A stretch of 64,000 bases of DNA, taken from Nitrososphaerales archaeon. GTDB taxonomy: Archaea > Thermoproteota > Nitrososphaeria > Nitrososphaerales > UBA213. The stretch is from NCBI GenBank assembly GCA_965197925.1, contig CBDAOC010000018.1:192001-256000 (forward strand), in the 5' to 3' direction. This document shows positions 1 through 4,136 of the stretch, in pieces. The stretch's first letter is position 1. The number at the start of each line of letters is the position of its first letter. The notes below the pieces were generated by a model, which made no database searches, was not told the origin of the DNA, and was given only the letters and a program-made list of their open reading frames with translations. The position numbers and the translations under genes were made by a program.

Positions 1-1
1 A

Positions 2-85
2 GCATTGTAGTACTTGTCAGAATCAAATATCAATGTAGTATTGTTGGATAAGCATGGTAAGTTATACACCTTGATTAAACTGTAG
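2..85 (+). pseudogene. cas1: Cas1/casposase-like internal fragment, cut by the window edge, with an in-frame TAG
   Basis: Manual translation from nt 2 gives AL*YLSESNINVVLLDKHGKLYTLIKL*, resembling the Cas1 N-domain segment AL..LSE.NI.V.LLD..G. Short, so tentative. Confidence 0.5.
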
Positions 86-614: not shown

Positions 615-1178
615 ATGCCACAAACAAAGGCGGTTGTTAGCGTAGAAAATGTCGTTGCGTCTGCAAGCGTAAATCAAAGGATAAATCTTAACGATATAAC
701 ACAAAAATTTCCTGACGTCGAATACCATCCCGATCAGTTCCCGGGCTTGGTCTTTAGGATAAAATCACCCAAAACCGCTACCTTAATCTTCAGTACTGGC
801 AAGATGGTTTGTACAGGTGGCAAATCAGAAGATCAATCTATCAAGGCTGTAAATAGTGTAGTTCAGAAACTGAAGAAGGGTGGGATTCCCATAGAAAACG
901 AACCTTCCATAGAGATACAGAACATAGTTGCATCTGTCAATCTAGGGGGCAAGATAAACATAGAACTTGCTGCTAGAGTGTTACCTAGGAGCATGTATGA
1001 GCCAGAGCAGTTCCCTGGCTTGATACACAGAATACTGGATCCTAAAAGTGTAATACTTCTATTTGCTAGCGGTAAGCTCGTATGTACTGGTACCAAGAAG
1101 GAGAACGAGGTTTATAGAGTAATAAACGCGTTGCATATACTGCTGGAAGAGAAGGAGTTAATGATATACGAGAGTTAA
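615..1178 (+). CDS. tbp: TATA-box binding protein
   Basis: Two TBP repeats: NVVAS...YHPDQFPGLVFR...LIFSTGKMVCTG and NIVAS...YEPEQFPGLIHR...LLFASGKLVCTG. Confidence 0.98.
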   Translation: MPQTKAVVSVENVVASASVNQRINLNDITQKFPDVEYHPDQFPGLVFRIKSPKTATLIFSTGKMVCTGGKSEDQSIKAVNSVVQKLKKGGIPIENEPSIEIQNIVASVNLGGKINIELAARVLPRSMYEPEQFPGLIHRILDPKSVILLFASGKLVCTGTKKENEVYRVINALHILLEEKELMIYES

Positions 1179-1279
1179 ATCTTCTGTTTGATCTGTTTTC
1201 TCGAACGATAACCAGTTTGAATCGAACTATTATAGAATTGAAAGTCTTAAGAATATCTTAAGACCATGTGGTATAATCT

Positions 1280-1346
1280 GGATGCTGATGATGAAAGGAA
1301 AAGCCGTCTGAAGTTTGATGAATAATATAGGCGAGTTGAAGCATCC
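1280..1346 (+). ncRNA. C/D-box-like sRNA
   Basis: 7-bp terminal stem GGATGCT/AGCATCC; C box ATGATGA 1288-1294; 13-nt guide; D' CTGA 1308-1311; C' TGATGA 1316-1321; 14-nt guide; variant D box TTGA 1336-1339. Confidence 0.65.
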
Positions 1347-1528
1347 TCTAAAGCCCACATTGATGGAATCTTGACAATCTTATCAGTCTTGGGAGTAGTT
1401 GGAGAGTATTTGAAGAGTGTTTTAATGTAATCTTAAGAAATGTTAAGAGTGGTTTGAGAGTATTTGAAGACCATCATAAGAGTATTTTAATACTCAATCA
1501 TAATTATAATTACGTACAGGGTCTTCTC

Positions 1529-1576
1529 GATTCTATTCGTGGAAAACTACTTGTAGAAAATTCTACGAATAGAATC
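1529..1576. repeat. 16-bp inverted repeat (hairpin) just upstream of CRISPR repeat 2
   Basis: GATTCTATTCGTGGAA (1529-1544) pairs with TTCTACGAATAGAATC (1561-1576), with one G-U pair. Confidence 0.75.
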
Positions 1577-1691
1577 TATATCATGTTTGAATCGAACTCT
1601 TATAGGATTGAAATGATGTTAGCGTTATGGTCGTGGTAACTGATTGTGCGGTTTGAATCGAACTAATTGGAAATTGAAACTTGAATTCGAT

Positions 1692-1814
1692 CTAATTCCG
1701 TTCTACAGAGACAACAAAACTAACTTTTTTGATATGATCTTTTAGATGGATACTAACACCGTAACCTTTCAGTAATTTGATATTGTAATGGTTCTTCTTT
1801 CCTTTGAGTAACAT
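1692..1814 (-). pseudogene. cas1: N-terminal stump of a casposase-type Cas1
   Basis: Manual translation MLLKGKKNHYNIKLLKGYGVSIHLKDHIKKVSFVVSVERN*. The first about 26 aa match the start of thaumarchaeal casposon Cas1 as I recall it (KGKKNHYN.KLL.GYG.SI.LK). Confidence 0.7.
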
Positions 1815-2243: not shown

Positions 2244-2438
2244 AGATTTTTTGCTTAGAATTTATTGATGAAGAATAAGAGTATCCCTCCACCTTACGCA
2301 TGGAAATCTGACGCTTGTCGTAAAGCTTGTATGTATCATATTCGAAAAGTTTAGATCTATTCTACCTGTAGTCTAAGATCATGGACTCTACAAGATTCGA
2401 GTTACAAAACAGATAGTATATAGCAGCGTTATCCAATT

Positions 2439-2747
2439 TTGATGGGATTGGGCTCGATAAAGATACTCATAGATGCAATGCGTGACGGGATTGACCTAGA
2501 ATTAAATAAACTGGGTTATGAGGCTTATAGCGTCAGGAAGCTTGTTGAGAAGGGAGAGAAATTAAAGAGTGATTATTCTATTATAAAATATGCTGAACAA
2601 AATAAAATGATTTTGGTTACAGAAGATATTGATAACATAGAGGGTTGTATGGAGAACAACATAGAATGTGTACACTTTGAACAGATTCATTCTCTCAACT
2701 ATCTTCTGGAAGCGTTAGAAAAGATAACACAGATTGAATTAGCATAG
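2439..2747 (+). CDS. DUF5615-like PIN-domain protein (putative toxin/RNase)
   Basis: KILIDAM...LGYEAYSV...SDYSIIKYAEQNKMILVTED pattern. Confidence 0.7.
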   Translation: MMGLGSIKILIDAMRDGIDLELNKLGYEAYSVRKLVEKGEKLKSDYSIIKYAEQNKMILVTEDIDNIEGCMENNIECVHFEQIHSLNYLLEALEKITQIELA

Positions 2748-2790
2748 AACCATCTAGATCATGGTTTAGCTTTAGTCTATCAGGTCTACA

Positions 2791-3015
2791 ATGACTCTAC
2801 GAGTTGTGTATAAATTAACAGAAGAAGAGCATGCAAGGTTGCTTGAATTTTGCAGTAGGGGAGGATGTACTCCATCTGCAATGGTAAAAGAAACTATTAT
2901 CATAAGGATTATACCCGAATCTCCGACGAGAGAGAGAAACCTTATGGACATGTTAAGAGAACTTTCGAACAAACACCAACTAGTGAAGAGCTGTAAGAGT
3001 AGTTTTCACTATTGA
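2791..3015 (+). CDS. small RHH-like DNA-binding protein
   Basis: LRVVYKLTEEEHARLLEFC..GCTPSAMVKETI, a beta-helix-helix pattern. Confidence 0.5.
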   Translation: MTLRVVYKLTEEEHARLLEFCSRGGCTPSAMVKETIIIRIIPESPTRERNLMDMLRELSNKHQLVKSCKSSFHY

Positions 3016-3258: not shown

Positions 3259-4136
3259 GAAGTCATCCCAATACTCTCCAATACATCATAATCGACGAAA
3301 TGATAACAAATGCCAGATAGTTTTGTGCATTCTTCTCATATCTGATCCTGGTTCTGTGGAACCCATTCTTCAACCAGGCAAAGAATCTCTCCACAACATA
3401 GCGCGTCTTGCCGTATAGGTATTGTTCTGTATTATCATTTTGTTGTTGTGTCTTACTGTTTTTTCTGTAAGGTATGCAGTCAGAGATTTTTCTTTTGGTG
3501 AGGTATTTCCTGATGAATTCTGCATCATAGCCCTTGTCTGCTTGGCACCGCGCAATTTTTCTGATAGATCTCTCATCCAGATATTGTGAGATGCCATCCA
3601 TCACGTCTACAAATCTTGCAGAGTCATGCTGATTTGCAGGACATTACTACTGAGACTGGCAGTCCGTTTTGTTCCACCGCAACGTGTATTTTTGTGCCTG
3701 AAATCCTGTTGAATCCGTTGTATCCTATGACGCTTCCCCTTTTTTGGCCGGAACTGATGACGAATCGACCGTTTTTTGCAGCTGCATCTTGCCTGATCTG
3801 TGGGCTGATTTGACTGCAGCGGAGAGGATATTCTTCCATATTCCACGTCGCTGCCAGTTCTGCAGTCTGCGGTGCGCAGTTGATTTGGAGCCGTACCTTT
3901 GTGACATCCCAGTCCACCTGCATCCTGTTATCCCGACAAACAGGATTCCGTTGACTGTCTTTCTGTCGTCTGCCCTTGGCCTTCCGGTTCTGGCTGGCTT
4001 GGGGAGATGCGGTGATATCATCTTCCATTGTTCACCTGTTATCTCCTGAAATTTCATGATCTGCTACGGGCAGCATTGCAAATAGATCCAAATGATCGTC
4101 AATTATTCACTAAATGATCAGTTTTGGGATCAGCTG
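3259..4136 (-). mobile_element. IS5-family element type A, copy 1 (orfA 3725-4057, orfB broken by an extra frameshift)
   Basis: TGRPRADDR, TGCRW, DKGYD and RYVVERFFAWL motifs; imperfect TIRs GAAGTCATCCCAATACT / AGTTTTGGGATCAGCTG; A6G slippery site. Confidence 0.92.

Follow-up and report, generated by a model that had tools for sequence, protein, structure and literature searches.

Features of the locus behind the second tbp gene

The window analysed here is a stretch of 64,000 nucleotides (G000:C18:192001-256000), and its sequence relatives are Thaumarchaeota. G000 denotes the source assembly, which comprises 2.9 Mb in 20 contigs and is 98.7% complete and 5.4% contaminated. We refer to the family that includes G000 as f1 and to the family of Nitrosopumilus/Marine Group I type as f12. 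Near the left end of the window, a tbp gene is followed by a CRISPR repeat (R1), 340 nt of other sequence, a second repeat (R2), a spacer and a third repeat (R3); the features are listed in Table 1. An earlier note on this DNA had described R1, a C/D box cassette with its boxes, stem and guides, and R2 at a distance of 340 nt, and the re-check returned the same coordinates for all of them. It had counted two repeats, both of which are genuine, but had overlooked the degenerate R3, so that the locus contains three. It had also taken the interval between R1 and the RNA for one spacer length; this interval is 35 nt here but 46 nt in G005, a genome of a second genus that also has R1 with the RNA, and is therefore not conserved.

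Further to the right, another 11-bp tandem repeat was observed at 2047-2090, and positions 2439-3015 hold a DUF5615 (PIN-like) gene and a small gene without a Pfam match. A 90% identical remnant of the latter stretch lies in the eIF5A-dph6 gap, the usual home of the native sRNA. The labels eIF5A, dph6, EF-2, guaA, aspS, trpC and NUMOD3 are presumptive, being assigned from motifs in the translations.

Table 1. Features of the locus (positions refer to the window unless a contig is given)
Feature	Position	Strand	Evidence or remark
cas1-solo (casposase-like), broken fragment, end	1..64	+	tblastn with the genome's intact cas1-solo
Protein-primed PolB, broken	G000:C18:187143-188757, ~3-5 kb left of the window		PF03175 matches and ORFs
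tbp, second copy	615..1178	+	PF00352, E 1e-56
Other tbp	G000:C17:125114-125714		82% identical to the window copy
CRISPR repeat 1 (R1), orphan	1215..1244	+	without the G-run leader end of relatives' intact arrays
Linker	1245..1279	+	9-bp hairpin at 1244-1264
C/D box guide RNA	1280..1346	+	7-bp terminal stem, 1280-1286/1340-1346
Boxes of the C/D RNA	C 1288-1294, D' 1308-1311, C' 1316-1321, D (UUGA) 1336-1339	+	
D' guide	1295..1307	+	pairs with host 23S nt 2665-2675
D guide, apparently rewritten	1322..1335	+	pairs with host 23S nt 2712-2720
11-bp-period tract, degenerate	1347..1500	+	0/1000 shuffles equal its periodicity; strains differ by one whole unit
Long hairpin, 16-bp arms, just before R2	1529..1576	.	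z -6.1
CRISPR repeat 2 (R2)	1585..1614	+	340 nt after R1
Spacer, ordinary, 36 nt	1615..1650	+	different spacer at this place in G004
R3, degenerate terminal repeat	1651..1680	+	counterpart of G005's single repeat behind tbp
cas1-solo 5' remnant	1692..1814	-	28 codons; 79% identity with the intact C1 copy
~100-nt module, diverged relative	2269..2375	-	module occurs upstream of cas1-solo genes and beside the G004/G005 repeats
IS4/5-family element	3263..4057	-	39 such copies in the genome

The C/D box RNA belongs to an order-wide guide RNA family

The box pattern alone was weak evidence for an RNA gene, since the strict pattern had a single match in the 2.9-Mb genome and the three Markov controls gave 1, 0 and 0 matches. 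We hold the RNA to be real because it is conserved. A search model built from five copies was applied to 150 genomes of the order and found homologues in 64 of them, including all 23 genomes of f12 and seven of the eight other f1 genomes. In an independent MAFFT alignment of 33 homologues, each of the seven pairs of the terminal stem showed two-sided changes; none of 500 shuffles equalled the covariation score, and slid controls reached at most a quarter of it. The RNA has C, D', C' and D boxes, k-turn geometry and a terminal stem, as archaeal C/D sRNAs do. UUGA, the D box of the window copy, is common among f12 homologues, as is AUGA, and the host encodes L7Ae, Nop5 and fibrillarin. No Rfam family reached its gathering score. 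These results demonstrate that the C/D RNA, which the note had read as a C/D-box-like sRNA, is a member of an order-wide thaumarchaeal guide RNA family absent from Rfam.

We then examined 42 of the 68 listed homologue loci. Those of G000 and G005 are the two linked to repeats. Among the other 40, 36 adjoin eIF5A and/or dph6, and none has a CRISPR repeat in flanks of up to 1.5 kb, the best matches having 11-14 mismatches. A pattern scan yielded 72 loci, of which 68 lie in the eIF5A/dph6 setting, two are repeats of the repeat-linked G005 copy and two are other G005 copies. L116 (99.9% identical) and L160 duplicate the G005:C11 sequence and are not independent loci.

A separate observation concerns eIF5A itself. 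The gene is interrupted in the Lys codon of its KPGKHG motif, which we take to be the hypusine site, by an insertion of 17-22 nt resembling a bulge-helix-bulge intron (G000:C18, about 283575-283555, minus strand; L070, L072, L075-L078 and L082). The insertion was present in 7/7 f1 genomes examined and in one f8 genome, and absent from six others. Its features suggest a conserved mRNA intron of archaea, and our literature search found no description of it.

Pairing of the two guides with 23S rRNA

The earlier note had proposed searching the host rRNA for guide targets, and both guides proved to pair with host 23S, the D' guide with one mismatch. The D' guide forms 10 Watson-Crick pairs and one C.A mismatch, and its +5 position is nt 2668, presumably about C2510 of E. 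coli. All 16 homologue rows from f12 have an A-type D' guide, and both f12 23S sequences examined have the matching U. The other 15 rows, from outside f12, have a G-type guide, and the 23S of f15, G005 and G000 has C (an rRNA match was obtained from 4/5 genomes). The D' guide covaries with 23S rRNA across families.

The ancestral D guide forms a 12-nt pairing with the anticodon arm of the organism's own tRNA-Met, with +5 on C34, and the intron-bearing tRNA-Met of the host has the same C34 guide site. The D guide of the window copy appears to have been rewritten. It forms nine continuous Watson-Crick pairs with host 23S at a site 48 nt from the D' site, and its +5 position is nt 2716, which we take to be about C2558 of E. 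coli in the A-loop hairpin. The 9-bp match is short; compared with shuffled guides in a post hoc test, it had a P value of 0.017 against 16S and 23S together, and of 0.0008 when only the 100 nt around the D' site were considered. The pair scores 36 against the threshold of 32 given in the text of Lui et al. (PMC6009581), where about 45% of Pyrobaculum sRNAs are described as targeting two sites within 100 nt. Outside rRNA, a single full-length exact guide complement was found in the G000 genome, a 13-mer in a coding-looking stretch on C17 that we take as chance.

The search for a donor RNA with the new D guide found none with C/D layout besides G000 and G005 among the 41 of 57 pattern matches examined. 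Two other scaffold copies in G005 carry different guides. For the D' guide of the copy on G005:C24, no donor was found: 2/251 genomes match, and the other match is without boxes. tRNA-Leu(UAA) and tRNA-Ala(UGC) were considered as targets of the D guides of these two copies and gave no good match; the tRNAs tested comprised 27 G000 tRNA-like loci and 20 G033/G005 tRNA regions, and the archaeal-type tRNAs recovered did not include Leu(UAA). We also observed a group of tRNAs without introns at G000:C16:24379-91424, at least 13 in number and with Arg(ACG) among them, unlike the intron-rich tRNAs of the host; this cluster may belong to a virus or a contaminating contig.

Apparent origin from a Nitrosopumilus-type archaeon

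Over the 42 nt from the stem to the C' box, the window copy has 38-39 matches with the best f12 RNAs, versus 31-33 with native f1 copies. Both G000 and G005 combine an A-type D' guide with a C-type 23S of their own, which gives one mismatch in 11. The G005 copy and homologue L146 share an identical stretch of 50 nt, seven bases of which belong to the flank and contain the eIF5A stop codon; they are identical again after the guide, so that the D guide is the sole difference. In the window, the last 7 nt of the linker equal the flank of a Nitrosopumilus-type homologue, eIF5A stop codon included. A profile search also found a decayed native-type copy with damaged boxes at G000:C18:50790-50859, beside a repeated element end, and the native eIF5A-dph6 site in G000 holds IS and other mobile remnants instead of the sRNA. 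Because its scaffold is of Nitrosopumilus type and its D' guide mismatches the host's own 23S, the window copy is foreign by its sequence. The comparisons indicate that it was probably acquired horizontally from a Nitrosopumilus-type archaeon and that one of its guides was rewritten.

Casposon debris and shuffled relatives of the locus

Genes for cas1-solo and protein-primed PolB are both present, broken, just left of the window, and a cas1-solo 5' end lies right of R3. Near-identical IS copies flank the whole debris stretch, whose left boundary is a 99.7% identical copy of the IS4/5 element in the window. Repeats of G004 and G005 are bordered by the ~100-nt module, which on G004:C218 surrounds cargo in inverted orientation. 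No intact casposon with the repeat-RNA unit was found, and a module-specific 22-nt pattern had no match in metagenome contigs. The second tbp is itself enclosed by cas1-solo remnants and IS copies. This gene is present at contig starts in G004 and G005 as well and may therefore be mobile cargo.

Among 301 genomes, the non-RNA parts of the 340 nt occurred only in G000, G004 and G005, apart from one 21-nt match in G222; the tally of 85 in this search includes two unpublished genomes, G259 and G270, from which no other result given here derives. The parts are shuffled between loci. In G005, R1 and the RNA lie together at one locus (C11), a lone R3-like repeat lies behind tbp, and hairpin pieces lie elsewhere, the hairpin of 1529-1576 being present without a repeat on C27. 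In G004, the tract, the hairpin (2/48 differences) and R2 with a different spacer occur at another locus, and tbp is without a repeat. The two further scaffold copies in G005 have no repeat, and one of them lies 1.6 kb from cas1-solo. The D' guide of one pairs with 23S over 10 bp (P = 0.003). The copies differ in their guides and do not form a MITE-like family, with one intact copy in G000 and three in G005 that have unlike flanks. Both further copies (G005:C24:13250-13570, L034; G005:C28:14870-15210, L035) are each preceded by a long hairpin that is conserved but for its variable loop. A tandem unit on G005:C24 is without the RNA almost exactly between the stem ends, which hints at precise insertion or loss.

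Islands made up of cas1-solo genes and related debris lie behind EF-2, guaA, aspS, trpC and tbp in G005. On G005:C43, C49, C12 and C24 (L190, L192, L193 and L188), cas1-solo is fused to or flanked by lysine-rich repeats that we take to be NUMOD3-like. EF-2 is described as the usual target of thaumarchaeal casposons (PMC6563490).

One explanation of the layout is that the 340 nt are a giant spacer or a mini-casposon, inserted into a repeat by a Cas1 enzyme that thereby duplicated the repeat. In its favour, one repeat alone lies at this tbp site in G005, G000 contains cas4-cas1-cas2 and casposase genes, and parts of the insert are found elsewhere in the genomes of G004 and G005. We nevertheless consider such an insertion very improbable. 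The G005 repeat is nearer to R3 (6 mismatches) than to R1 (10), R1 accompanies the RNA at a further locus, terminal inverted repeats are absent from the insert and a leader end from the repeats, and no directly joined, insert-free form was seen in the 4 runs examined.

CRISPR repeats and the search for cas6

R1 is within 2 nt of the repeats of long arrays in G015, G018 and G036, which confirmed its CRISPR identity, and some such relatives also carry cas6. The regular spacing of 35-40 nt holds for R2-R3 only (36 nt) and fails for R1-R2 (340 nt). The window repeats are without a TATA/G-run leader, and a G-run leader end was present in 6/7 long arrays whose start was examined. The same repeat occurs on C20 as a three-repeat mini-array and two solo copies. 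These were observed at G000:C20:873557-873740 and 871596-871882 (minus strand), the mini-array comprising 3 repeats, 2 spacers and a partial repeat; they are split by IS and lie far from cas4-cas1-cas2 at C20:38914-40580. The window spacer had no second match longer than 13 nt in the G000 genome, and neither it nor the two C20 spacers had a self-target there. None of 169 spacers of relatives matched the window locus, and viral contigs gave no repeat match, no cas1-solo relative and one chance C/D-like match.

The earlier note had suggested that the repeats were co-opted as Cas6 processing sites. We searched G000 for cas6 by three methods and found none: PF01881 had no match, an HMM of seven thaumarchaeal Cas6 proteins reached a best E of 1.4 on six-frame ORFs, and tblastn with a relative's operon returned only cas4, cas1 and weak helicase matches. 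The PF10040 profile was uninformative on this point, as it also missed G036, which has cas6. There was no match to cas5, cas7 or cas8 in G000, and only weak helicase matches to cas3. What remains is cas4-cas1-cas2, in which the type I-B cas1 continues in one frame into cas2. Among relatives, cas6 was found in 0/8 of the family and in 6/41 overall. Because no cas6 was found in G000 or in eight family relatives, release of the RNA by Cas6 is not supported in this host, and R1-R3 would be an orphan mini-array.

A broader version of this idea, in which Cas6 cuts R1 and R2 in this or an earlier host or element and releases a handle-bearing guide precursor, is in our judgement quite unlikely. R1 is close to consensus and lies 35-46 nt upstream of the RNA at two loci in two genera, relatives with nearly the same repeat have cas6, and further arrays whose repeat is similar are present in runs X9 and X13. 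The captured piece would also need a new 5' signal away from eIF5A. Against this, in addition to the missing cas6, cuts at both repeats would yield a product of 370 nt, of which the RNA is 67 nt; G005:C11 is without a downstream repeat in the stretch examined; and two other G005 copies have no repeat. The same RNA stands without repeats at 40/42 homologue loci examined and no cas6 was found in G000, two of the findings that the note itself had named as refuting its idea. R1 and the RNA do recur together in a second genus. Read-through from tbp, which the note had also invoked, is unnecessary, since the repeat-RNA unit of G005 lies away from tbp and the tbp of G004 has no repeat.

We further compared the conservation of the two sides of the unit between G000 and G005. 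R1, linker and RNA together differ at 7/132 positions, versus 33/212 in nearby non-coding DNA (P = 0.003). R1 with the linker differs at 3/65 (P = 0.02), R1 alone at 2/30 (P = 0.27, not significant), and the RNA at 4/67, versus 13/68 in its 3' flank. Because R1, linker and RNA outconserve their flanks, the repeat side may have a role of its own. A more recent transfer could also explain the conservation, because the comparison mixes two G005 loci. The captured RNA has lost its eIF5A context and would therefore need a new promoter or 5' signal; the purine-rich 3' end of R1, with a TATA-like word after it, could serve as such.

Interpretation of the locus

We consider it moderately likely that the locus holds a horizontally captured and retargeted double guide for 23S, run by the host's L7Ae, Nop5 and fibrillarin and lying beside orphan repeats. 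The ancestral form behind eIF5A would guide 2'-O-methylation of 23S through its D' guide and of tRNA-Met C34 through its D guide. In an ancestor of G000, G004 and G005, a piece of ~75 nt that starts with the eIF5A stop codon and stops where the terminal stem does would have been taken from a Nitrosopumilus-type archaeon and inserted, by a presumed route and vehicle, into a casposon-associated module within its repeat tract. The D guide would then have been rewritten, presumably under selection, giving an RNA whose two guides pair with adjacent helices of the peptidyl-transferase domain at sites 48 nt from each other. If a transcript is made, L7Ae, Nop5 and fibrillarin would bind and trim it as they do other archaeal C/D RNAs, and it would methylate 23S or aid its folding at both sites. 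The three repeats would be an orphan mini-array in the same module rather than Cas6 sites in this host, and the R1/linker side may perhaps be the promoter or the 5' boundary of the RNA.

The same RNA could instead be a silent relic, that is, a captured C/D gene drifting in debris, neither made nor used, whose A-loop match is due to chance. The genome is rich in IS and broken genes, the D' mismatch with host 23S stands uncorrected, D guides of native f1 copies vary freely, and for the D guides of the other two G005 copies the RNAs tested offered no convincing target. Moreover, the base at 1327 is missing in strains X10 and X13 (among 40/174 differences listed), which alone shortens the D duplex to 8 bp; their contigs span the whole locus at ~95% identity (4 of 22 runs compared). 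However, two genera retain all four boxes and the stem, with fewer differences in the RNA than in its 3' flank; the target-proximal 11 nt of the new D guide are identical in G000 and G005; and two independent new guides, of 9 bp and 10 bp, match 23S at the P values given above. We regard a silent relic as unlikely and retain the captured double guide as the reading of choice.

A wider proposal is that casposon-type elements carry captured C/D guides as functional cargo and diversify the guides, each copy having a conserved upstream signal that would provide its promoter or 5' end. One foreign scaffold is present in four copies, which carry three different guide pairs and are located in cas1-solo islands of two genera; two of the new guides match 23S. 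The candidates for the upstream signal are the CRISPR repeat with its linker at the window and a different hairpin in the two G005 copies. We put this forward tentatively, and the special case of it in which Cas6 makes the 5' end of the RNA is very doubtful. If the cargo proposal is true, mobile DNA would reprogram the modification of the host ribosome via host enzymes.

As for the locus itself, it would represent a C/D guide that crossed archaeal families and carries an internal marker of its origin, namely a guide base that fits the 23S of the donor and not that of the host. The apparent change of target from tRNA-Met to the A-loop hairpin gives one predicted nucleotide, and the analysis defines an order-wide guide RNA family that is lacking from Rfam.

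Comparison with known systems

CreTA/CreR and solitary repeat units are repeat-flanked regulatory RNAs that are processed by Cas6 and need co-resident Cas6 and Cascade. The window resembles them in that degenerate repeats flank non-spacer sequence outside a main array. It differs in that neither Cas6 nor Cascade was found in G000 and that the enclosed RNA is a C/D guide.

Known guides for tRNA-Met C34 include sR49 of Pyrococcus and an exonic guide of Haloferax (PMC2584109, PMC7994747). By their descriptions, these RNAs share with ours the terminal stem, the C, D', C' and D boxes, the +5 rule and, for the ancestral form, a D guide on tRNA-Met C34. In contrast to them, the window copy has lost the tRNA-Met guide, is foreign and lies in mobile DNA.

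The C/D sRNAs of Pyrobaculum, as described by Lui et al. (2018, PMC6009581), are similar in their duplication, guide replacement and target shift by indels, in copies far from genes, and in having both guides within 100 nt on one rRNA. Unlike the MITE-like sRNAs of Pyrobaculum, the window copy seems to have crossed families, is without flanking inverted repeats of its own and has CRISPR repeats and casposon debris as its neighbours. In the main text of that paper the word 'horizontal' does not occur, and 'CRISPR' appears only in a reference.

TIGR-Tas systems (PMC12045711) are described as having two guides between box C and D motifs and a CRISPR-like look, which the window shares. A TIGR-like, DNA-targeting guide for a Nop-domain effector would accord with C/D motifs and two variable guides in mobile DNA, and with sibling copies that have different guides. 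However, the window has a single unit without an array of 36-nt units and no adjacent Nop-domain effector; the sole Nop-domain gene found is Nop5, beside fibrillarin; and the RNA is of k-turn type with RNA targets, its guides pairing with rRNA or tRNA and descending from a housekeeping sRNA. We regard this reading as hardly credible.

A further comparison is with the stand-alone CRISPR arrays and family 1 casposons on thaumarchaeal mobile elements described by Krupovic et al. (2019, PMC6563490). The window shares with them arrays without cas genes, host-type repeats, location in mobile DNA, cas1-solo together with protein-primed PolB, and islands at the 3' ends of housekeeping genes such as EF-2. 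In the open-licence papers that we searched, no C/D RNA between CRISPR repeats was described, in agreement with the earlier note, which knew of no such system. The arrays of Krupovic et al. are long and lie on conjugative or cryptic elements, whereas the window has three repeats, one true spacer and broken casposon genes, and in this comparison the window alone has an RNA-guide gene between its repeats.
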